A stretch of DNA of 15,099 bases from an uncultured bacterium (GTDB taxonomy: Bacteria; Lernaellota; Lernaellaia; Lernaellales; Lernaellaceae). A model generated the notes under the pieces. The model was not told the origin of the DNA and ran no database searches. It saw nothing but the letters and a program-made list of their open reading frames with translations. The stretch lies in assembly GCA_964534375.1 (NCBI GenBank), contig CAZHPN010000153.1, positions 1 through 15,099 of the forward strand, read 5' to 3'. Positions 2,998-14,168 of this stretch are shown in pieces. Numbering within the stretch: position 1 is the stretch's first letter; each line of letters begins with the position of its first letter. The position numbers and the translations under genes were made by a program.

Positions 2998-3119
2998 CGG
3001 GCGAAAATATTTTGTCAGCGGCGTGTTTTTACTCGATTTCTCTTCGTTCGTAAAGGCAGCCCACCGTGCGCTTCGTTCGGCGGACGCGGAAGTTGGTCGA
3101 ATTTCCCCGTTTTGGTGGA

Positions 3120-3148
3120 TTGTGGACGCATGAAGAATTTGTTAGCAT
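3120..3148 (+). promoter_or_regulatory. Putative extended -10 promoter for the lipoprotein pair
   Basis: TTGTGG (3120-3125), 17 nt, TAGCAT (3143-3148) preceded by TGn. Confidence 0.35.
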
Positions 3149-3203
3149 TTCGTTAGTTAGTGGTTGGGCCGTTAATTTCGCATCCAAAACCCAGGGGTTC
3201 GCG

Positions 3204-5189
3204 ATGAATCGAGTGTTCCCGCGGTCGACATTCTTGCTCTGCCTCGCGGCGTTGGCGTTTTTCTCCTTCCTGGCCCTGAACTGCGGCAAATCGTCCAGTT
3301 CGTCGTCCAATTCGCTCGTCGACGACGACGACAACGACGCCTCGCCCGCCGACGATGACGACAACGACAACGACGACACCAGTCCCGTGAACGCCATCCC
3401 GACGACGCTCGACGTGACGTTCGGGCCGAAAGAAACGGCGCCGGGCTCGGGCCAATACGTGCTCGCGCAATTTCCCGGCGAACCGTACATGGCGCGCAAC
3501 GATCTGAACATCAAGCCGACGCTCAGCCCGGCGGCCGGCGCCAAGCCGTTGTCGATGACGTACTTTTCGGTCTTTTCGGATCTGCACATCACCGACGAAG
3601 AGGCGCCGGCGCGGCTGACTTTCTTCGACGGGAACGTCATTCTCGACGGCCTCTTCCAGGCGGCGTTTCGGCCGCAAATGGATCTCGGCGGGCAGATGCT
3701 GAACGAGCTGGTGCGCACCGCCGACCGCATCCAAAGCGACTACGGCCGCGATTTCGATTTCATGCTGCTGTTGGGCGACGTGGGCGACAACGCCCAGACC
3801 AACGAGATGAAAACGGCGATCGACATTTTCGACGCCACGGGCCTGCTCACCGGCGACCCGGGTTGGGTGCGCGTGGACAGCGGCGATCTCGACATCGATC
3901 CGCAGACCGGCCACGACCGCGGCGAGCGCAATTTCGACATTGAAGAAACCAACCTGGAAGGCAAGAACATCGACCCGTTCAACCGGCCCGGCTACCCGAA
4001 CTCCAACGCCGACTTCCAAACGCCCGGCCTGGTGCGCGCCTCCGGCGAGCACGTGCCGTGGTTCGCGACGATCGGCAACCACGACGAAGAGAACTGCGGC
4101 GTCTTCGAAATGTCGACGCTGTTGACGATTTACAAACCCGACGACTACGTCGGCGAATGGGCGCCCTTCGGCATGCTGCCGGCGTTCGCCAACATGATCA
4201 AGTATTGGGAAGACAATCCGACCGCGGACATCAAAATCGGCAACGGCTTGTTGGGGTTGATGGATTGGCGCGATGTGTTCGAGATTATGAAAGACATCGG
4301 CATGATTCCGCCGGGTTACACCGAAGACATCAATCCGGCCCTCGAACCCGATGCCGAATTTGCGCGGATTTTGAAATCCTCCGCGCCCAACGGCGTCCAC
4401 GTGGCGCCCGATCCGGATCGCGCCTACCTGGGCCGCGCCGGCGAAATCAACCTGCTCGAACCGATGGGCCACGGTTTCAAGAATCGCCCCGCGCAAGACT
4501 TCGGCTATTACCGCCTCGATTGGAGCCAGATCGACCCGTCGTCCGACCTGCCGCTCCGCATTTTGACCCTGGACAGCACCGAGGAAGAAAACATCGCCGA
4601 CGGGGGCATCAGCGACACCCAACTCGCCTGGTTCGAAAGCGAACTCGACCAAGCGGCGACCGACGAAGTGCTGGTCATGGCGACGTCCCACTTCCACCTC
4701 AGTTCCATCTCGAAAAACGGCGCCGAACTCGCGGCGTTGCTCGCGTCGTATCCGAACTTCTTCATCTTCCTCGAAGGTCACGGCCACGACAACCTCGTGG
4801 CGCCTCGGCCGGGCACGGGCGATTCGCCCGGGTATTGGGAAGTCGAGACGCCTTCCGACATGGACTTCCCGCAGCAGGCGCGCATTTTCGAAATCGTCGA
4901 CAACCGCGACGGCACCGGCATCGTGTACACGACGCTGTACGATCACTGGTCGACCGTCGGCGACGACGCGGACGTATTGGGCGACCTGGGCCGCCAATTG
5001 GCGTTCACCGATTGGATGGCGAAGGGTTGGGACGGCAAGACCCCGTTCGCCGGCATGGGTCAGTTGAGCGACCGCAACGTCGCCCTGACATTCGCCATTC
5101 CGGCGGCGATCGAAGCAAAATTGGCGCAGATTCCGTCGAACGGCTCGATCACGTCGGTGGATTCGCTCGGCCATCTTTATCATCCGTGA
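3204..5189 (+). CDS. Lipoprotein with calcineurin-like metallophosphoesterase domain (resembles TIGR03767/TIGR03768-type)
   Basis: Signal peptide with lipobox LALN-C, then a Ser/Asp-rich linker, then ordered metallophosphoesterase motifs SDLHITDEE, GDVGDN, IGNHD, SHFH and GHGH, plus WEVETPSDMDFPQQAR. Start moved to the ATG at 3204. Confidence 0.85.
   Translation: MNRVFPRSTFLLCLAALAFFSFLALNCGKSSSSSSNSLVDDDDNDASPADDDDNDNDDTSPVNAIPTTLDVTFGPKETAPGSGQYVLAQFPGEPYMARNDLNIKPTLSPAAGAKPLSMTYFSVFSDLHITDEEAPARLTFFDGNVILDGLFQAAFRPQMDLGGQMLNELVRTADRIQSDYGRDFDFMLLLGDVGDNAQTNEMKTAIDIFDATGLLTGDPGWVRVDSGDLDIDPQTGHDRGERNFDIEETNLEGKNIDPFNRPGYPNSNADFQTPGLVRASGEHVPWFATIGNHDEENCGVFEMSTLLTIYKPDDYVGEWAPFGMLPAFANMIKYWEDNPTADIKIGNGLLGLMDWRDVFEIMKDIGMIPPGYTEDINPALEPDAEFARILKSSAPNGVHVAPDPDRAYLGRAGEINLLEPMGHGFKNRPAQDFGYYRLDWSQIDPSSDLPLRILTLDSTEEENIADGGISDTQLAWFESELDQAATDEVLVMATSHFHLSSISKNGAELAALLASYPNFFIFLEGHGHDNLVAPRPGTGDSPGYWEVETPSDMDFPQQARIFEIVDNRDGTGIVYTTLYDHWSTVGDDADVLGDLGRQLAFTDWMAKGWDGKTPFAGMGQLSDRNVALTFAIPAAIEAKLAQIPSNGSITSVDSLGHLYHP
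3321..3380 (+). repeat. Asp-rich low-complexity (GAC/AAC) linker in lipoprotein 1
   Basis: Encodes DDDDNDASPADDDDNDNDDT. Confidence 0.8.
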
Positions 5190-5270
5190 TCGAACGCGAA
5201 AAAGGGATTTGACATTCGTCGGACGGTCGAAACGGTGACGAAAGGCGCACGGGGCGCGAAGGACCGCGTT

Positions 5271-5930
5271 GTGCGCTATCTTTTCCTGGCGTTGTTGGGA
5301 TTGTTGTGCCTCGGCGCGGCCGTGAGCCTCTCGTGCGCGCGCGAGAGCAACAGCAGCGGGAGCAACGGCGCCCTCGACGACGATGCCTCGCCGACGGACG
5401 ATGACGACGATGCTTCTCCCGCCGACGACGACGATGACAACGACGACGACAACGACGACACTGCCGGAGAGACTGTCTGGACCGATTCGACGACCGCTCT
5501 GACGTGGCAGAACGGCCCCGCGGTCGGCTCGATCCAATACGATGTGACGGACGCGCAACTTTATTGTTCGGGTCTGAGTTGGGGCGGATTCGGCGGCTGG
5601 CGGCTGCCGACGATCTCCGAGCTTCGCAGCCTGATTCGGGGTTGCGCCGCCACAGAGCCGGGCGGCGCGTGCGGCGTCACCGACGGCTGCCTGGAACTCA
5701 GGTGTCTCGCTTCGTGCGGTGGTTGCCCCCACTCCGAAGGGCCGGCGCCGGGCGGCTTCTATTGGCCGTCGGAACTGTCGGGCAACGCCGACAATTGGTG
5801 GTATTGGTCGGATTCGGCGGTCGCGCCCAACAACCTCGTCGACGACGCCGGCTGGACGGTCGATTTCAACCTCGGCAGCGTCTCCCTCGCCCTGATCGAC
5901 TACAACAACGCGGTGCGTTGCGTGCGTTAG
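5271..5930 (+). CDS. DUF1566 (Lcl C-terminal-like) domain lipoprotein
   Basis: Lipobox SLS-C, Asp-rich linker, VWTDSTTALTWQ, WRLPTISELRSL, YWS and terminal VRCVR. Probable GTG start at 5271 after AAGGA; 5235 is the alternative. Confidence 0.85.
   Translation: MRYLFLALLGLLCLGAAVSLSCARESNSSGSNGALDDDASPTDDDDDASPADDDDDNDDDNDDTAGETVWTDSTTALTWQNGPAVGSIQYDVTDAQLYCSGLSWGGFGGWRLPTISELRSLIRGCAATEPGGACGVTDGCLELRCLASCGGCPHSEGPAPGGFYWPSELSGNADNWWYWSDSAVAPNNLVDDAGWTVDFNLGSVSLALIDYNNAVRCVR
5376..5462 (+). repeat. Asp-rich low-complexity linker in lipoprotein 2
   Basis: Encodes DDDASPTDDDDDASPADDDDDNDDDNDDT. Confidence 0.8.
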
Positions 5931-5931
5931 A

Positions 5932-6046
5932 CGCGGCCGAGCCGCGGGGCTGCGCGGCCGAGCCGTGGACTGAAAGGCCGGGAGACTCGCAAGGCGACCG
6001 GCAGCACGACCTCTCAGCCTCTCAGCCTCCCAGTCTCTCAGCCTTG
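5932..6046. repeat. Inverted array of degenerate 8-bp units, copy 2
   Basis: Left arm: cgcggccg..cggggctg cgcggccg..tggactg aaaggccg ggagactc (5932-5988). Right arm: cgacctct cagcctct cagcctcc cagtctct cagccttg (6007-6046). Shares exact 12-18 bp blocks with copy 1. Confidence 0.7.
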
Positions 6047-7249
6047 CCGCGGGCCTTCCAGCCTCTCCAACGCGGCTAGCACCTCGGCGACCGGCAAAGA
6101 GTTTTTGAAAAAAATGACCGGGCCGGGCAGGGCGGCCATGTCCTCCTGCCGTTGCGCGACCGCGGCGACGACGATCGGCCGGTCGGCGAAGCGGCGAAAC
6201 GTTTCGAGTTTCGCGGCGAGATATTGCGGCGTCCAGAAGCCGACGATTTCGAGATACGCCTCGGCGCCGTCGGCCCGCCGGAAGACGAAATCCGGCACGA
6301 ACGTCTTTTGCCGCACGTCCAGGATCGCGCCCTCGCGGTCCAGCGACCAGCCGTCGCGCTCCGAACCGAACGCGGCGGCGAATTTCTCTTCCAGGCTCGA
6401 ATCGAACTCGGGCGGCGCGGGCAGGCGGCCGGTCAGGCCGGAGGCGTCGTCGAGCGCCAGCACCGCGTTGCCGCGCTCCGTGCGAATGTCGGCGCGCAGC
6501 CGCCAGCCGCGGCAGGCGAGCAGCGCCGGCAGGAAGCGCGCCATGGCCACGCCGTAGCGGCGCGTCTCGCGCAAGATCGACGCCGGGCCGGTCAGCACGA
6601 TGCGATACGCCGACGGCCCGCGCCGCGTGATTTCGTGCAGCAGCCGCGCCAGTTTCACGTAACGCAAAACGATTTTGAAATCCTGCGTGACGTCGATCGT
6701 CATCCGCGCCGCGCGATAGAGGCAGACCTGCGCCTGCGCGACGTTGTAGCGCGCCAGCAAGGCGGCGGGCGTTTCGTCGGCGGCGAAGGCGCGCAAGCGA
6801 TGGCGGTCCATGACGTCGGCGTAAAGCCGGTTTTCGATTTCCGCCCACGGCTGATCGAGCGCGCGGGCGATTTCCTCTTTGACCGCGCGTTCCTCGTTTT
6901 CGAACAGCGCGCGCCGTTCCGCGACCAGGGGGTGTTTTTCCGCGGCCAACGCGAAAACTTTGAGCCGCAATTCGGCCGAATTGCCGTGGCGGTCGGTGTC
7001 GAAATCGGCCGCGTCGTCGAGCAATTTGCAGAAGGCCGCGATGCGCCGGGGCTGGCAATTCGGTTCTTCGTCGAAGAGCCGCTCGACCGCGCGGTGCAGG
7101 TCGCGGCGCGTGCGGCCGGCGCCGGCGGCGTAGATCTCCAACATGCGCGCGGCGTAGGCGAGGTATTGCCGGTGCGGGCCGCGCAGCAGGCGGTCGGGGA
7201 TCACCCGGCCGCGATCATATTCGGCGATGGCGTGTTCGCGTGTAAGCAT
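6038..7249 (-). CDS. DUF790 family protein (Bax1-like PD-(D/E)xK nuclease)
   Basis: MLTRE start, RYNVAQAQ, GPASILRETRRYG, FDSSLEEKF and FVPDFVF...EIVGFWTPQYL. Lies directly downstream of, and overlaps, an XPB-like helicase. Confidence 0.88.
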   Translation of the reverse strand: MLTREHAIAEYDRGRVIPDRLLRGPHRQYLAYAARMLEIYAAGAGRTRRDLHRAVERLFDEEPNCQPRRIAAFCKLLDDAADFDTDRHGNSAELRLKVFALAAEKHPLVAERRALFENEERAVKEEIARALDQPWAEIENRLYADVMDRHRLRAFAADETPAALLARYNVAQAQVCLYRAARMTIDVTQDFKIVLRYVKLARLLHEITRRGPSAYRIVLTGPASILRETRRYGVAMARFLPALLACRGWRLRADIRTERGNAVLALDDASGLTGRLPAPPEFDSSLEEKFAAAFGSERDGWSLDREGAILDVRQKTFVPDFVFRRADGAEAYLEIVGFWTPQYLAAKLETFRRFADRPIVVAAVAQRQEDMAALPGPVIFFKNSLPVAEVLAALERLEGPRQG

Positions 7250-8621
7250 CGCTTTTCCGGCGCGCGCGCGAGCGTTGTTCCTCGCCCGCCGCTTCGCAAA
7301 CCACCTCGTAGAGCACCGCCCGCGCGTCGCCGACGGGCCGCAGAATGCGGCCGAGCCGCTGCTTCGCCTGGCGCGTCGACGACTGCCCGCCGAGCACGAC
7401 CGCGACCTTGGCCTCGGGCACGTCGACGCCCTCGTCGAGCACCTGGTTGGCGACGATCGCCGGGAAGCGGCCCGCGGCGAAATGTTCGAGCACGGCGATC
7501 CGCTCCTTCTTGCGGCAATGGCTCAGCAGCGTCGGCAGCAAAAAGCGCGTCGAGACCTCCAGCGCCATCGCATTCGTGCCCGTGAAGACGATCACCCGCT
7601 CGCCGCGATGCCGGCGAAACAACTCCTCCAGCGCGCGAAATTTTTCCTGCGCCCGGTCTTCGAGCGATTGCTTTTCGTAAAACGCGTGCTGCGCGCGGCG
7701 CGCCTCTGGATCGGCGCCCGCGTCGGCGAGAACGTCCTTCCATTCGTAGCCGGGCACGTCGCGCCGCCGGGCCAGGACGTAGTTGCGCACGATCGTCGAC
7801 GCCCAATCGTGTTTCTGTTTTTCCGCCTCGGTCAATTTCACGGAAATGCGATAGGTCTCGTACGGCGCAAGCGAGTCCCCCGCGTCGGCGAGATCGCACT
7901 GGCAGCAAACCGGCCCGATCAGCCGGTCCAGATCGACGTGCCGCCCGTCCGGGCGTTCCGGCGTCGCGGTCAGGCCGAGCCGCCGCGGCGCCGTGCACAT
8001 CAGCGCCGCCTCGCGATATCCGGGGGCGGGCAGATGGTGCGCCTCGTCGAAAACGATCAGGCCGAATTTCGCGCCGATCTTCGGCATGTGGATCGCGGCG
8101 CTGTCGTAGGTGGTGACCGTGACCGGGCGCAGATCGAAAGTGTTGTCGCCGAGCACGCCGGCGTCGTAGCCCATCGCGCGCAGGATGCGCCGATGCCATT
8201 GGTGCATCAGGTCGCGCGTGGGGCTGACCACGAGCGTCGCGACCCAGGTCCGCGCCATAATCGCCAGCGCCACGACCGTCTTGCCCGTGCCGGTCGGCAT
8301 GACGATCACGCCGCGCCCGCCGGCGGCCAGCCAGCCGGCCACGGCTTCTTCCTGCTGCGGCCGCGGCGGCGGCAGCGCGATCAGCGGCCACGCCACAGCG
8401 CGCGGCGTTGGGATATCAACATGCAGCGGCAGCCCGGCGGCGCGAAAAAGCTGCTCGGTTTCGGCGAGATGAATCGCGTCCGCCCGCCACCCGCCGACGC
8501 GCCAATCCCAGCGCCACACGCTGCCGTCGAGCAGGCTTTTCGCCGCGTCGAGTTTGAGGCCGCGCAGGAGAAGGGTGCCGGCGTCGAAAATCAGGGTGGG
8601 CGCGGCGAGGGGTTCGGTCAT
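7215..8621 (-). CDS. XPB/Rad25-like superfamily 2 DNA helicase
   Basis: Walker A MPTGTGKT, motif Ia SPTRDL, DEAHHL, GLTATPER, LDEGVDVP and QRLGRILR. Confidence 0.9.
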   Translation of the reverse strand: MTEPLAAPTLIFDAGTLLLRGLKLDAAKSLLDGSVWRWDWRVGGWRADAIHLAETEQLFRAAGLPLHVDIPTPRAVAWPLIALPPPRPQQEEAVAGWLAAGGRGVIVMPTGTGKTVVALAIMARTWVATLVVSPTRDLMHQWHRRILRAMGYDAGVLGDNTFDLRPVTVTTYDSAAIHMPKIGAKFGLIVFDEAHHLPAPGYREAALMCTAPRRLGLTATPERPDGRHVDLDRLIGPVCCQCDLADAGDSLAPYETYRISVKLTEAEKQKHDWASTIVRNYVLARRRDVPGYEWKDVLADAGADPEARRAQHAFYEKQSLEDRAQEKFRALEELFRRHRGERVIVFTGTNAMALEVSTRFLLPTLLSHCRKKERIAVLEHFAAGRFPAIVANQVLDEGVDVPEAKVAVVLGGQSSTRQAKQRLGRILRPVGDARAVLYEVVCEAAGEEQRSRARRKSDAYTRTRHRRI

Positions 8622-9193
8622 AGGTTTTCGGCAGCGATGATATTTCGGATTCGCTCTTCCAACTCGGCGATTTCGGGACAGCGGCTTTTGAGGCCGCGGT
8701 AATTTCGCAGGGTTTCTTTCATCAGTCGGCGCCGAGAGCCGCCGGGATCGTCAGGATTGCCGTGTTGCGCGACGAATGGCTGAAAGAACGATTCCTTGAC
8801 CCCGCTGTCGCGCCTGACTTCGAGCCAGGGTCGGCCCAGTTTTCCCACGTGGCCGGCCAGCAGCCACGTTTCAACTTCCTCCACTGCGGCGCAGCACAAC
8901 AAACGAATGCCGTTCTTCTTGGCGTGTTTCTCCAGAGCGTCAAGATCCGCACGTCGACTCTGGCCGTCGTTGTCGGGCAGGAAAAGCACAAGCTTCACAT
9001 GCCTGTAACGCAGCGGCACTTGCTCCTTTATCAGTTTTGTGGCGTCCTCGTATCCATTGGCGCTGGGGTTCGTCATGATTGTCACGTCGGACCGCGGCCT
9101 TGCGCACGCTTTCATTATTCGTTCGACAAGGGGCTTCAATATGTAGCCATTGTATTTCGGATTTTCGGGGACAACCAGAACGTTAAGACTCAT
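8618..9193 (-). CDS. TOPRIM-like protein (DUF4276/RloB-like partner of the upstream ATPase)
   Basis: N-terminal strand ending in Glu (VLVVPE), DxD (LFLPDNDG) and EEVETWLLAG. The ATG at 9193 overlaps the ATPase stop (ATGA). Confidence 0.65.
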   Translation of the reverse strand: MSLNVLVVPENPKYNGYILKPLVERIMKACARPRSDVTIMTNPSANGYEDATKLIKEQVPLRYRHVKLVLFLPDNDGQSRRADLDALEKHAKKNGIRLLCCAAVEEVETWLLAGHVGKLGRPWLEVRRDSGVKESFFQPFVAQHGNPDDPGGSRRRLMKETLRNYRGLKSRCPEIAELEERIRNIIAAENL

Positions 9194-10413
9194 TCCGCCG
9201 TCTCCAACCACCCTTCGACGATCATGTCGGCGACGGAATTTGTGCGCGCCGCTTCCACGAAATGCGGCAGTTCGGACAGCGGCGTGATGATGGAAGCGCC
9301 GGATCTCGGATTGCGGCGGCAGAAGAAGACATGCTCGTAGTCCGTTTCGTTCAGCCAGGCGACGACAAGCGGTGAGTGTGTGGTCGCGAAGACCTGCGTT
9401 TTGCGGCCCGATTGCGACTTCAGCAACTCGACCAACAAACGGATGCGCGTTGGGTGCAATCCGTTTTCAATTTCCTCGATAGCGATCAAACCCGGCATGG
9501 TCGGCTGAAAAAACGCCGCCGTGATCGCGGCAAAACGGAGCGTGCCATCCGAGAGAATCGGCGCCGGGTAGACGACGCCTTTTTTTTTGACGGCGAACAT
9601 CGGTTCTTTTAGAGCGCCCGGCAAAACCGCAACATCATCCAAGTCGATTGGGGTCAATTCCCGCAACCAGGACAAATAGCTCGATCTAGTTTTCTTGCCG
9701 GCAATGATCGCCTTGACGATTCCAGCGAAATCCTCGCCGTGCTCTCCCATTCGTCGAACCGCATGCGTTTGTGCGTAGCTCCGCAGCAACCCGACTGACG
9801 GGGACAGTTGTTGCATATTCGCAAAAGCGAGCAAAGTCGATTGAACTGCGGTCGCGTGCTCTGTACGCATGGGCGGGTCTGATTTCGCCATTTGAGCGAG
9901 CGACGGAACGGAACCCAGAACTTGGTAACCCTTCTCGTCGCGGGGCGCACCGGGGAAATAACGAATCCCCCGAGTCTGGCGCGCAAACCTTCGGCCTCCG
10001 CTCACGAAAACGTTGCGTTCCCCGTCAGTGAATCTGTCATTTTCCACTGTTCCGTGATTCAGATCAAATTCTATTTCGTATTTTGCCTTACTCCCTAATT
10101 CGTGCCGCATGTCCACGGCGAAACTCACCGATGTCGACTTTCTCGCGAGGTCGGTTTTTCCGATTGCCGCGAAAGCCGCCTTTGCGCTCCCGCCGCGAAT
10201 GCCCGCCCATTCCGCGCTCGTCGCACTTCGCGGTTTGCCGTTAAATATCTCATCGACGGTGAATCCATTGCCGATGCCTTGCAGTACGCGCAACGCGTCG
10301 AAAAAGTTGGATTTGCCGCTCGCGTTGGTCCCGATGAAGAGATTGAACGGACCGAGATCCAGCGCCACTTTTTTCAGGCTCTTGAAACCCTCAATCTCGA
10401 TCCTGGTAATCAT
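9190..10413 (-). CDS. ABC-type (AAA_21/AAA_15-like) ATPase
   Basis: IEGFKSL, Walker A GTNASGKSN, variant signature LSDGT, Walker B/D-loop IAIEEIENGLHP and H-loop TTHS. SD GGGGAG. Confidence 0.9.
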   Translation of the reverse strand: MITRIEIEGFKSLKKVALDLGPFNLFIGTNASGKSNFFDALRVLQGIGNGFTVDEIFNGKPRSATSAEWAGIRGGSAKAAFAAIGKTDLARKSTSVSFAVDMRHELGSKAKYEIEFDLNHGTVENDRFTDGERNVFVSGGRRFARQTRGIRYFPGAPRDEKGYQVLGSVPSLAQMAKSDPPMRTEHATAVQSTLLAFANMQQLSPSVGLLRSYAQTHAVRRMGEHGEDFAGIVKAIIAGKKTRSSYLSWLRELTPIDLDDVAVLPGALKEPMFAVKKKGVVYPAPILSDGTLRFAAITAAFFQPTMPGLIAIEEIENGLHPTRIRLLVELLKSQSGRKTQVFATTHSPLVVAWLNETDYEHVFFCRRNPRSGASIITPLSELPHFVEAARTNSVADMIVEGWLETAE

Positions 10414-10439
10414 TTCTGCGTCTCCCCATGGTTACGCGG

Positions 10440-10468
10440 ATAGTAGAAAATCTCGGTGATCGAAGCAA
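10440..10468 (-). promoter_or_regulatory. Putative sigma70 promoter of the ATPase-TOPRIM-XPB-DUF790 operon
   Basis: TTGCTT (10468-10463), 17 nt, TACTAT (10445-10440), between the rho terminator and the ATPase SD. Confidence 0.65.
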
Positions 10469-10483
10469 CTCGAAAGCGGCCAC

Positions 10484-10514
10484 AAAAAAACGCCCGACGG
10501 TTTCCCGTCGGGCG
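10484..10514 (-). terminator. Intrinsic terminator after rho
   Basis: Minus strand CGCCCGACGG-GAAA-CCGTCGGGCG-TTTTTTT: perfect 10-bp stem, GNRA loop and U7. Confidence 0.92.
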
Positions 10515-10538
10515 CTTCCGTTTTAAGGCGCGGGCCGG

Positions 10539-11927
10539 CTACTGATTCATCAAATCCATGAAGTCGTTGTTCGACTTGGTGCCGGTCATCTTGTCGAGCA
10601 GGAACTCCATGCTGTCGATGGTGTTCAGCGGGCTGAGCACGCGGCGCAGCACCCAGACGCGCTGCAGCGTCGCCGGGTCGAGCAGCAACTCTTCCTTGCG
10701 CGTGCCGCTGCGGTTGATGTCGATCGCCGGGAAAATGCGGCGGTCGGCCAGCTTGCGGTCGAGGTGGATTTCCATGTTGCCGGTGCCTTTGAATTCTTCG
10801 TAGATCACTTCGTCCATGCGGCTGCCGGTGTCGACGAGCGCCGTGGCGATGACCGTCAGGCTGCCGCCTTCTTCGACGTTGCGCGCCGCGCCGAAGAAAC
10901 GTTTCGGTTTGTGCAACGCGTTGGCGTCGACGCCGCCCGAGAGGATTTTGCCCGAGTGCGGAACCACAGTGTTGTACGCGCGGGCGAGGCGCGTGATCGA
11001 GTCGAGCAGAATCACCACGTCGCGCTTGTGCTCGACGAGGCGCTTGGCCTTTTCGAGCACCATTTCCGCGACTTGCACGTGGCGGGTGGCGGGCTCGTCA
11101 AACGTCGACGAAATGACTTCGCCGCGGACGCTGCGCATCATATCGGTGACTTCTTCGGGCCGCTCGTCGATCAGCAGCACGATCAGGATGACTTCTTTGT
11201 GATTGCGGGCGAGCGAATTGGCGATCGCCTGCAGCAGCATGGTTTTGCCGGCTTTCGGCGGCGAAACGATCAGGCCGCGCTGGCCTTTGCCGATGGGGCA
11301 GACCAAATCCATGATGCGCACGGAATACTGGTCGGACTCGGTTTCGAGCTTCAGCATCTCCATCGGATACAGCGGCGTCAGGTTGTCGAAGAGGATTTTG
11401 TTGCGCGCCAGGTCGGGGTCTTCGTGGTTCATCGCCTCGACTTTGAGCAACGCAAAATAGCGCTCGCCTTCTTTCGGCGGGCGAATTTGGCCGCTGATCG
11501 TGTCGCCGGTGCGCAGGTTGAAGCGCCGAATCTGGCTCGGGCTGACGTAAATATCGTCGGGGCCGGGCAAGTAGTTGTAATCCGGCGCGCGCAGGAACCC
11601 GAAGCCGTCGGGCAGGATTTCCAACGTGCCTTCGCCGTAGATCATGCCGTTGCGTTCGGTGTGCGCCTGGAGCAGGGCGAAAATCAGGTCCTGCTTGCGC
11701 ATGCCGGTGGCGCCTTCGACGTTCAAGTCTTTCGCCAGCCGCAACAGATCGTTGATCTTGCGCTTTTTCAGGTTCTTGATGTTGATTTCTTCGGGCTGAA
11801 TCGACCCGTCGGCGGCGGTGCGGCGCGGCCTTTTTACGGCTTCGGCGCCTTCCTCATCCCCGTTTTCGTCTTCATCGGCCAATTTCTTTCCCAGGTCCGG
11901 GCCATCCTTGAACAAGTCATCCGCCAT
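10539..11927 (-). CDS. rho: Transcription termination factor Rho
   Basis: [56 protein letters not shown] and [10 protein letters not shown]. Confidence 0.98.
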
Positions 11928-12336: not shown

Positions 12337-12375
12337 CGCGGGCGTTCCACAGGCCGAGTTGTGCGGAGGTTCGCA

Positions 12376-13560
12376 ATGCTTCAGAGCATTCAGTTGAAAA
12401 ACCTGCTTTCGTTCGGGTCGGACAGCGAGCCGCTGCCGTTGCAAAAATTGAATGTACTCATCGGCCCAAATGGCTCCGGGAAATCCAACTTACTCGAGGC
12501 AATCGGACTTCTACAGGCCGCGCCAAGAGACGTCGCGGCTCCGATTCGTAACGGCGGCGGGATTCACGAATGGCTGTGGCACGGCGCGACAGAGCCGGCG
12601 CCGGCAAACATCAAGGTCGTTGTTGATGGCCTCAGCGGTCGAATTCCCTTGCGTTACGATCTTGAATTCGCCGAATCCGATGACCGGTTGAAGTTTTCTC
12701 TGGAAGAAATCGCGAACACTGAAACAACGGAAAAAGAGAAGAAGCCGCGCACGTGGTATCGTTTCACGGGAACTGTCCCGAGGATTAGGAGCACGGCGAA
12801 AAGAACGCTGTTGTTCATGCGGAAGAACTTTGACCGCGCGCGCTCCATTCTCGCCCAACGAAAGGATCCCGATCGTTACCCAGAATTGACCTACTTGGGC
12901 GAAACGTTCGAACGCATTCGCATTTACCGCGAATGGTCGTTTGGTCGTCGCTCCGTACCGCGTCTGCCGCAGAAGGCGGACATGCCCACCGACTTCTTGA
13001 TGGAAGATTGCAGCAATCTCGGGCTGGTGCTGAACCGACTGCGGCGCGCCCCGGCGGTCAAGAAACAGATCGTCGAACGCCTCCAACTTCTTCACGAAGG
13101 CTTCGACGATTTTGACGTTCGAGTCGAAGGCGGCACGGTGCAGGTTTTCCTGCAGGAGTCGCCCACCAAAGCCTCGGACGGCGGCTGGATCGTTCCCGCG
13201 ACGCGGCTGTCGGACGGCACATTGCGGTACCTGTGCCTGCTCGCGATCTTGCTGGACCCGAATCCGCCGCCGCTCGTGTGCATCGAAGAGCCCGAACTCG
13301 GGTTGCATCCGGATATCGTTGCGTCGCTCGGCGAATTGCTGGTCGCGGCCTCGGAGCGGATGCAACTTGTTGTCACGACCCATTCGGACGTTCTGGTTGA
13401 CGCGCTGACCGAACATCCGGAAGCGGTAATAGTTTGCGAGAAACGCCAGGGGGCGACTTGCATGCGTCGTCTGGATCGCGAATCGCTCGCGGTGTGGCTC
13501 GAAAAATATTCGCTCGGCCAATTGTGGCGCGATGGCGAGATCGGCGGCAACCGATGGTAG
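12376..13560 (+). CDS. ABC-type (AAA_21/AAA_15-like) ATPase
   Basis: LKNLLSF, Walker A GPNGSGKSN, LSDGT, VCIEEPELGLHP, TTHS and C-terminal SLGQLWRDGEIGG. ATG at 12376 follows GGAGG. Confidence 0.9.
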   Translation: MLQSIQLKNLLSFGSDSEPLPLQKLNVLIGPNGSGKSNLLEAIGLLQAAPRDVAAPIRNGGGIHEWLWHGATEPAPANIKVVVDGLSGRIPLRYDLEFAESDDRLKFSLEEIANTETTEKEKKPRTWYRFTGTVPRIRSTAKRTLLFMRKNFDRARSILAQRKDPDRYPELTYLGETFERIRIYREWSFGRRSVPRLPQKADMPTDFLMEDCSNLGLVLNRLRRAPAVKKQIVERLQLLHEGFDDFDVRVEGGTVQVFLQESPTKASDGGWIVPATRLSDGTLRYLCLLAILLDPNPPPLVCIEEPELGLHPDIVASLGELLVAASERMQLVVTTHSDVLVDALTEHPEAVIVCEKRQGATCMRRLDRESLAVWLEKYSLGQLWRDGEIGGNRW

Positions 13561-14168
13561 CCGTCCGCATCTACGTGGAGGGCGGCGGCGACAAAGCCGG
13601 CCTTCGCCGGGCGTGCCGTATCGGCTTTGCACAATTGTTCGAAAAAATTGTGCCCGCGGGACACCAACCCCTCGTGAAAGCGTGCGGGCGACGCCAGGCG
13701 GCTTTCGACGACTTTTGCACCGCGCTAGTCGCCCACCCGGACTCGCTCTGCGTCTTGCTGGTCGACAGCGAAGGCCCCGTTGCCGTTGGAACAACTGCCT
13801 GGTCGCACTTGAAGACGCGGGACAAGTGGAAGCGCCCGTCCGGCGTGAAGAATCAGCAAGCCCAAATGATGGTGCAATGCATGGAAGCTTGGTTTCTTGC
13901 CGACAAGGAGGCGCTGAAGAAGTTTTACGACAAGGGATTTTTGCTCAAGGCGCTGCCTGGGCGCGCGAACATCGAGGAGATTTCGAAGGACGACCTTTTC
14001 CGCATCCTTGAACACGCGACGCGAAAAACAACGAAAGGCGCCTATTCAAAGGGCGATCACAGTTTTCAGATTTTGGCGAAGCTCAGTCCCGAATTGATCG
14101 AAAATGCTTCTCGCCACGCCAAAACGCTGTTCGATTTCCTCAGAGAAAATGCCGCGGACAGCGCTTAA
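13554..14168 (+). CDS. DUF4276 family TOPRIM-like protein
   Basis: IYVEGGG, LLVDSEG and MVQCMEAWFLAD. The ATG at 13554 overlaps the ATPase stop (ATGGTAG). Confidence 0.8.
   Translation: MVAVRIYVEGGGDKAGLRRACRIGFAQLFEKIVPAGHQPLVKACGRRQAAFDDFCTALVAHPDSLCVLLVDSEGPVAVGTTAWSHLKTRDKWKRPSGVKNQQAQMMVQCMEAWFLADKEALKKFYDKGFLLKALPGRANIEEISKDDLFRILEHATRKTTKGAYSKGDHSFQILAKLSPELIENASRHAKTLFDFLRENAADSA

Follow-up and report, generated by a model that had tools for sequence, protein, structure and literature searches.

A four-gene minus-strand unit that is probably a chimera of a portable ABC ATPase/TOPRIM-like cassette and an XPB-Bax1 helicase-nuclease pair

A stretch of 15,099 nt with 62% G+C from an uncultured Lernaellota bacterium (contig CAZHPN010000153.1), referred to below as the window, was analyzed for a 4.4-kb unit of four co-oriented minus-strand genes at 6038..10468. 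The original prediction, made from the sequence alone, had described these genes as one candidate composite system. The four open reading frames (ORFs) were confirmed, and the genes were named A, B, C, and D in minus-strand order. The results suggested that the unit is probably a chimeric operon in which two autonomous gene pairs, A+B and C+D, are joined. The genes are as follows.

9190-10413, minus strand: gene A, an ABC-type ATPase (AAA_21/AAA_15) of 407 amino acids, of the PADLOC PDC-M07A type; G+C content at third codon positions (GC3) 0.66
8618-9193, minus strand: gene B, a small TOPRIM-like protein of 191 amino acids from the ATG, a divergent relative of DUF4276 and HEC-01B; GC3 0.65
7215-8621, minus strand: gene C, an XPB-type superfamily 2 (SF2) helicase of 468 amino acids; GC3 0.85
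6038-7249, minus strand: gene D, a Bax1/DUF790 nuclease of the PD-(D/E)xK type, 403 amino acids; GC3 0.85

The gene junctions were read directly on the minus strand. The strand reads GAATGAGT at 9193-9190, where the stop codon of A meets the start codon of B, and CTATGACC at 8621-8618, where the stop codon of B meets the start codon of C; both are true ATGA overlaps. Genes C and D overlap by 35 nt (C end 7215, D start 7249). All three overlaps had been listed in the original prediction, together with the lack of an evident Shine-Dalgarno sequence for the helicase gene, and the reading agreed with this: no Shine-Dalgarno-like run was found ahead of the C ATG on the minus strand. Since all four genes form one tightly overlapped array, translation of XPB is likely coupled to gene B. 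Overlaps of this kind were common among the A-B family loci examined below, including loci in which the B homologue is followed by an unrelated gene.

The identification of A as an ABC ATPase was borne out. The A protein scored well above the Pfam cut-offs for AAA_21 (114.3 bits, cut-off 27) and AAA_15 (74.2 bits, cut-off 32.1). Residues G28, S32, G33, and K34; L287-S288-D289-G290; E313-E314; and H346 were invariant across 28 sequences. By our own motif assignment, these residues would represent Walker A, the ABC signature (LSDG), Walker B with the catalytic Glu, and the H-loop, that is, a full motif set. The best PADLOC matches were four PDC-M07A models over the full length of A (3.1e-50 to 2.3e-46), followed by HEC-01A (1.2e-37), AriA (1.4e-32), and mad3 (1.1e-21). 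The NCBIfam model antiphage_MADS3 was matched at 7.9e-33, with 114.2 bits against a cut-off of 420. The closest relative of A was 53% identical.

The B protein had been called a TOPRIM protein, and the expected residue pattern was present. According to the available text of PMC12065111, the TOPRIM signature consists of a Glu after strand 1 and a DxD after strand 3, and DUF4276 is placed in the Toprim superfamily. Residues E10, D74, D76, E106, and E108 were invariant in a family alignment of 29 sequences. In the AlphaFold2 model of B, with a predicted local distance difference test score (pLDDT) of 93.8, strands were formed at residues 4-7, 36-39, 68-71, and 98-100, so that E10 follows strand 1 and the D74xD76 motif follows strand 3. 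The match of B to Pfam DUF4276 (E = 6e-4, 20.5 bits) fell under the cut-off of 30.2 bits, and the match to PADLOC HEC-01B was 2e-4. At E<=0.01, 21 of the 29 family members matched HEC-01B (best 1.2e-5) and 14 matched DUF4276 (best 9.2e-6). When the model was compared with the PDB by Foldseek, nothing was found at E<=0.001. The top two matches were both to the C-terminal (TOPRIM) region of Xanthomonas OLD (6njv and 6njx), and they were weak (E = 1.9e-3 and 4e-3, probability 0.96-0.99, template modelling score 0.37-0.46). Because the DUF4276 score was below the cut-off and the Foldseek matches were weak, B is described from its residue pattern and predicted fold as TOPRIM-like, and not as an established member of DUF4276.

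Other assignments for B were also investigated. B and its 28 relatives matched no PDC-M07 model at E<=0.01, and no match was obtained to DUF4435 in Pfam or AriB in PADLOC. A B-family profile gave two chance-level matches among the PDB sequences, a designed helical protein and Rpb4, and both were rejected. Against the DUF4276 protein F of the window itself, the profile gave a probability of 1.25% with only an EVExWLLAGH-like stretch aligned, and this candidate was likewise rejected. The 28 homologues aligned along the entire protein from the ATG at 9193, so B was taken as full length from this codon. The database form of the window's B (P0121) has 152 amino acids and begins at a later Met; the relatives, at about 185-195 amino acids, favour the longer form. 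The longer B, from the ATG at 9193, is likely the real gene. The closest relative of B was 58% identical, and the window's own genome was absent from the scan matches.

The products of C and D were an XPB helicase and a Bax1-like nuclease, as had been proposed. In a phmmer search of the PDB, residues 37-456 of C matched Sulfurisphaera XPBII (6p4f_A, 3.9e-82) and Archaeoglobus XPB (2fwr_A, 1.8e-80), both of them crystallized archaeal proteins. In Pfam, C matched ResIII (1.4e-27), Helicase_C, and ERCC3_RAD25_C, and XPB_DRD at 24.8 bits, just below the cut-off of 26. The N-terminus of C fitted the consensus length of 39 homologues. C also resembled restriction-type helicases, namely PbeA (7.2e-50) and dnd_restrict_1 (3.5e-38). 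D matched Pfam DUF790 over its full length (310.5 bits, model positions 1-387) and Bax1 in the PDB (6p66_B, 7.7e-35), and no PADLOC model was matched by D. The motifs DSSLEE, PDF, and LEIVGFWT of D aligned with E275, D305, and E318 of AfBax1, which are described as acidic nuclease residues in PMC7293015; all three acidic residues were identical. The catalytic motifs were intact in A, B, and D.

C and D are thus clear homologues of the archaeal XPB-Bax1 pair, which unwinds and incises bubble or fork DNA (PMC7293015). The window pair differs from it in that the host is a bacterium, that E135 of AfBax1, in the second, N-terminal active site, aligns with Met in D, and that the NCBIfam equivalog cut-offs were not reached (C 174.6 against 610; D 161.2 against 500). 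C and D lie next to each other and overlap, like the XPB-DUF790 pairs of Deinococcus plasmids. The two proteins may form a complex like that of archaea. A literature search combining Bax1, XPB, or DUF790 with phage or defence terms found no bacterial defence role within a limited set of papers.

The A-B pair was compared with known systems of similar architecture. It shares with the PDC-M07 and HEC-01 candidates a layout of two genes with the ATPase first and a stop/start overlap. A matches PDC-M07A over the full length, whereas B matches no PDC-M07 model; for HEC-01, A gives its second best type of match and B only a weak one. HEC-01 showed no protection in E. coli assays, as given in the available text of bioRxiv 10.1101/2024.01.29.577857, so that even for the nearest type to A-B no function is proven. 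A helicase and a DUF790 nuclease are absent from both candidates. MADS has a gene content that includes a methyltransferase and further mad genes. The window contains no methyltransferase or other mad genes, and A is not a MAD3 equivalog by its bit score. The MAD3-MAD4 part of MADS does resemble A-B in encoding an AAA/ABC ATPase and a DUF4276 protein, Mad4 being a DUF4276 homologue (PMC12065111).

PARIS also has a two-gene architecture of ABC ATPase and TOPRIM protein, and the AriA models match A over parts of its length only. AriB of PARIS is a DUF4435 protein of about 35 kDa, whereas B has 191 amino acids and no DUF4435 match. AriA and AriB are found in one complex, PARIS responds to the phage protein Ocr as its trigger, and a tRNA-Lys cleavage site has been mapped (PMC11464382). 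PARIS was used as the template for the mechanism proposed below, in which the trigger and substrate of A-B are suggested by analogy only. In Gabija, a helicase gene also follows the nuclease gene. GajA is a fusion of ATPase and TOPRIM, whereas A and B are separate genes with an ATGA overlap, and the GajA and Old models match short parts of A only. GajB is a UvrD-like superfamily 1 helicase; the window helicase is an SF2 XPB with its own nuclease partner, and its association with the ATPase-TOPRIM pair is not conserved (0 of 80 B loci, see below). For OLD, the likeness lies in the best PDB fold matches of B, where the C-terminal part of a class 2 OLD protein, with its TOPRIM domain, is matched. 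The unit is classed as a new, divergent member of the known ABC-ATPase/TOPRIM kind of cassette beside an ordinary XPB-Bax1 pair.

The recurrence of the four-gene order was investigated by scanning 185,579 species genomes with the B family, chosen because B is the most specific of the four proteins. The scan gave 152 relatives, and the best 80 of the 152 loci were analyzed. A was directly upstream of B in 77 of the 80 loci; the three without an adjacent A were at a contig end (L079) or disrupted (L062 and L080). No XPB or Bax1 homologue was found within 8 kb of B in any of the 80 loci (tblastn with the window C and D, E<=1e-5, both strands). The room downstream of B was at least 3 kb in 67 loci and at least 1.5 kb in 71. 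Pfam scans of the flanking ORFs and an all-against-all BLAST of the downstream ORFs revealed no conserved third gene beside A-B, and the neighbours were unrelated between loci. The largest cluster of downstream ORFs (7 ORFs) was a glycogen-metabolism gene in related Acidobacteriota.

A D homologue was carried by 42 plasmid records, most of which were Deinococcus or haloarchaeal megaplasmids. In all three plasmid contexts examined, which were from Deinococcus, XPB-DUF790 was a stand-alone overlapping pair without the ATPase pair; an upstream AAA_21+TOPRIM pair, as suggested by the original prediction for such neighbourhoods, was present in none of the three. The two plasmid records with a B homologue carried A-B alone, without XPB-DUF790. 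No homologue of D was found among 50,697 phage records, and a phage search with B gave none either. Of the contexts examined, only this window combined A-B with XPB-Bax1, the ATPase-TOPRIM pair standing ahead of XPB-Bax1 in one operon. Both halves are widespread, self-contained two-gene modules. These counts (0 of 80 B loci and, on plasmids, 0 of 3 contexts of XPB-DUF790 and 0 of 2 of A-B) do not support the proposal that the four genes are one composite system. Within the sample the order occurred in this genome only, the first of the refuting outcomes named in the original prediction. The remark that the combination is not a named system was correct, with no system found that contains all four genes.

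The surroundings of the A-B pair were consistent with a portable cassette. In an Acidobacteriaceae genome (L002:5264-10222), A-B lies between the genes for enolase and phosphoglycerate mutase, and the stop codon of B overlaps the ATG of the mutase gene as ATGA, the same junction as that between B and XPB in the window. In another locus (L024:6211-9818), the order is argR-A-B-argG. Most copies of the cassette adjoin housekeeping genes. With the same cassette overlapping a glycolytic gene elsewhere, a stop/start overlap is no proof that two genes act together.

The base composition of the cassette was compared with that of its flanks. Four of the 80 loci were dropped from this count because of missing adjacency or short flanks, and the cassette was AT-richer than the flanks in 74 of the remaining 76, with a median difference of -0.068 (window, -0.071). 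In the window, the GC3 of A and B (0.66 and 0.65) is lower than that of C and D (both 0.85), and the six genes measured outside the two ATPase pairs have values of 0.81-0.85. The composition shift falls at the B/C boundary. The GC3 gap was 0.20 in the window, and similar gaps were obtained for insertions at housekeeping genes: about 0.23 in L002, 0.21 in L024, and 0.24 in L065.

Signs of movement were searched for in the neighbourhoods. No integrase or transposase family was present in the Pfam listings of the neighbours scanned, and the direct and inverted repeats flanking the window cassette, examined as a possible target-site duplication or attachment site, were short and at chance level only. 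In a tree of A+B with 67 rows (14 loci that were partial, frameshifted, or non-adjacent were omitted), the window pair formed an isolated branch with a length of 0.82 and belonged to no well-supported clade.

A reverse transcriptase gene was observed just upstream of the cassette of the closest B relative (L001:4989-6329). It was considered as a retron-type partner of A-B and rejected; its best PADLOC matches were generic reverse transcriptase and homing-endonuclease models. This gene is probably an unrelated mobile element or mobile intron, and not a partner.

A further group of copies was located inside restriction operons. The gene right after B encodes a restriction SF2 helicase/PD-(D/E)xK nuclease in 4 of the 80 loci (L005, L013, L055, and L077). 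L013 (4187-11239) shows the order MTase_III (3.5e-123), A, B, and type III Res (REase_III, 4.9e-21) with overlapping junctions. The same Mod-A-B-Res order was found in L005 (1-5081) and L055 (1-4869), so that it is represented by three genomes from three phyla. The truncated upstream ORFs of L005 and L055 match the C-terminus of the L013 methyltransferase with 75% and 29% identity, and their Res proteins match the L013 Res with 67% and 36% identity, respectively. L077 (828-9208) is a type I operon of hsdM, hsdS, an ORF of 133 amino acids with no family match, A, B, and hsdR. XPB and Bax1 are a split analogue of the single-protein helicase-nuclease layout of Res and HsdR. In these operons, as in the window, the same type of cassette stands directly before the helicase-nuclease gene; the window differs in that the host pair, XPB-Bax1, is not a recognized defence system and in that its cassette comes first, at the 5' end, and does not interrupt the host genes.

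The restriction-embedded pairs were scattered in the A+B tree, and L055 was the sister of the stand-alone L065. On an Aminobacter plasmid (L086:3878-8682), Mod and Res occur without a cassette between them, the Res being 57% identical to that of L013. No methyltransferase domain was found among the window genes by Pfam, and the gene upstream of A is rho with its terminator. In bioRxiv 10.1101/2024.01.29.577857, the commonest family embedded in Hma systems is reported to be that of ABC ATPase genes with a TOPRIM, NERD, or PIN partner gene. A functional link of A-B to helicase-nucleases in general is conceivable.

On these results, a chimeric origin of the unit is the probable explanation. Module 1 (A+B) would be a portable cassette in which an ABC ATPase is combined with a small nuclease of the TOPRIM-like type. 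Cassettes of this kind are listed among candidate anti-phage systems (PADLOC PDC-M07A/HEC-01 and the MAD3-MAD4 pair of MADS). The window copy follows the rho terminator and reaches up to the start codon of a resident XPB-Bax1 pair. Module 2 (C+D) would be an ordinary XPB-Bax1 pair with the activity known from archaea, unwinding bubble or forked DNA and incising it. With the XPB ATG separated by the cassette from its native upstream region, the four genes would now be co-transcribed, and the translational coupling would be a by-product of the cassette position and no indication that the two halves act jointly. If A-B works like PARIS and OLD, the ATPase may hold or gate the TOPRIM protein; once a phage-derived trigger is sensed, the nuclease may be released, cut nucleic acid, and so abort the infection. 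The defence activity of A-B is thus proposed from likeness to these systems.

Several points weigh against the interpretation as two unrelated modules. In 4 of 80 loci the cassette directly precedes a restriction helicase-nuclease gene, so its position is not random with respect to helicase-nucleases. Composition alone cannot prove a separate history for A-B, because low G+C typifies the cassette family everywhere. The junction is very precise: the foreign-looking DNA reaches the native ATG of XPB, which has no Shine-Dalgarno sequence of its own, and neither a target-site duplication nor a recombinase is visible at the window cassette. With the nearest relatives only 58% (B) and 53% (A) identical, the insertion is inferred. 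The XPB-DUF790 side was sampled in three plasmid contexts, and the B side in the best 80 of 152 loci.

These points lend some weight to a functional composite, in which A-B works with XPB-Bax1 as it perhaps does with Res or HsdR in restriction operons. In one version, A-B guards or backs up the helicase-nuclease and fires upon its inhibition; in another, XPB-Bax1 processes DNA marked or cut by A-B. Such a composite would agree with the overlaps throughout the unit and the missing Shine-Dalgarno sequence of XPB, with the ResIII domain of XPB, and with the four operons in which B precedes a restriction helicase-nuclease (three Mod-A-B-Res and one hsdM-hsdS-orf-A-B-hsdR). The prominence of ATPase pairs in Hma systems and the report that PARIS senses an inhibitor of restriction systems (PMC11464382) point in the same direction. 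The composite is nevertheless considered unlikely, given that an XPB-Bax1 partner was absent from all 80 B loci and A-B from all three XPB-DUF790 plasmid contexts, that the window has no methyltransferase, that the embedded pairs are polyphyletic with the window pair in no partner-specific clade, that the cassette makes the same ATGA overlap onto a glycolytic gene, and that Mod-Res occurs without the cassette. The GC3 gap in the restriction-embedded pairs L005, L055, and L077 was 0.03-0.13, below the 0.20 of the window, in a small sample. A complex prediction for XPB with B returned a score of 0.00 ("no answer") and was not used either way. It is improbable that the adjacency to the helicase-nuclease is functional. 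Just as improbable is the idea that pairs of this family repeatedly settle right before helicase-nuclease genes (Res, HsdR, and here the split XPB-Bax1) for a reason. XPB-Bax1 would then be a methylation-independent restriction-like helicase-nuclease against invading DNA, and A-B would guard it or back it up by responding to its inhibition by a phage, much as PARIS responds to the anti-restriction protein Ocr.

The two ATPase pairs of the DUF4276 type that flank rho (A-B, and E-F at 12361-14168) raise the alternative of a defence island of independent systems, in which XPB-Bax1 is itself an unrecognized anti-phage or anti-plasmid helicase-nuclease and the ATPase pairs accumulated beside it. 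The plasmid records of D and the resemblance of C to PbeA and dnd_restrict_1 would fit such a role, as would the absence of an observable phenotype for archaeal deletions of nucleotide excision repair-type genes, which is attributed to earlier work in the available text of bioRxiv 10.1101/240879. The island is, like the composite, an unlikely explanation: C and D have the GC3 of the other genes measured outside the two ATPase pairs, D has neither a PADLOC match nor a homologue in the phage records, the literature search within its limited paper set linked none of Bax1, XPB, and DUF790 to bacterial defence, and the neighbours of XPB-DUF790 on the three plasmids examined are not defence genes. 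Less probable still is a rare but genuine four-gene system, acquired whole and unsampled among the 80 loci. The other 72 B relatives were outside the sample, and the window A-B forms a long isolated branch without a near relative, both of which leave room for it. A single transferred unit should share one composition, whereas GC3 jumps from 0.65 to 0.85 at the B/C boundary; the closest relative of D, on a 5,680-bp contig, is 77% identical, with no counterpart among the relatives of B (best 58%) or A (best 53%).

As a new four-part defence system, the unit does not hold up; the combination was seen once. Read as a probable chimera of two modules, the unit is a worked example against taking gene overlaps as joint function. 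The study characterized a widespread family of ATPase-TOPRIM cassettes whose nuclease has no passing Pfam match and which is nearly always AT-richer than its host. The restriction-operon copies provide a lead, namely a possible preference of the cassettes for sites immediately before restriction helicase-nuclease genes. If this were true for XPB-Bax1, it would give a testable function for the bacterial pair.

The sequences bounding the unit were also examined. The features are as follows.

10484..10514, minus strand: intrinsic terminator of rho, a GC-rich hairpin at 10514-10491 (10 pairs, 9 GC) followed by seven T at 10490-10484
10468-10463 and 10445-10440, minus strand: promoter-like TTGCTT and TACTAT with a 17-nt spacer; letters only, a weak consensus match
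10421-10427, minus strand: Shine-Dalgarno-like GGGGAGA, from sequence reading, 7 nt ahead of the gene A ATG
5925..6045, minus strand: two stacked hairpins that begin at the D stop codon, in the gap to the convergent gene, without a T-run

The stop codon of rho is at 10541-10539, upstream of the terminator hairpin, which has a folding energy of -36.1 kcal/mol (z = -2.85). The earlier statement that a strong terminator insulates rho from the unit was confirmed by this stem and its T-run. The unit had also been assigned its own TTGCTT-17-TACTAT promoter. The letters are present, and promoter status is unsupported, because the two boxes match the sigma-70 consensus at 3+4 = 7 of 12 positions and a promoter scan of 5800-10700 gave no qualifying site (0.4 were expected from shuffles). 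Internal terminators between the four genes were considered and rejected: 8 terminator-like sites were found against 6.9 +/- 2.2 in shuffles, and the minus-strand ones were all inside coding sequence. The hairpins 3' of D had an RNA folding energy of -67.5 kcal/mol (z = -2.95), and 1 of 200 shuffles was equally stable. They are the probable 3' end of the transcript.

Other features of the window were recorded. The second pair, E-F (12361-14168, plus strand), is separated from A-B by rho and encodes an ABC ATPase and a DUF4276 protein, with matches to HEC-01A (2.7e-171) and HEC-01B (5.5e-78). Its GC3 is 0.69-0.70, its genes overlap by 7 nt, and the ATPase E is only 26% identical to A. The true start of E is likely the ATG at 12376, after GGAGG. 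A minus-strand ORF of 1,301 amino acids (3153-7058) is most likely a spurious high-GC frame, since it overlaps the DUF790 gene and two plus-strand genes with family matches. Scans of the window for tRNA genes and Rfam families found none. The genes at 3066-5189 and 5235-5930, both on the plus strand, encode proteins that each begin with a hydrophobic stretch at the N-terminus and continue with a long low-complexity linker rich in Asp, with D, N, and S runs; one is a TIGR03767-type metallophosphoesterase, and the other has an Lcl_C domain. In the rho gene (10539-11927, minus strand), Pfam Rho_N begins at residue 53, and the roughly 50 preceding residues form a charged N-terminal extension.

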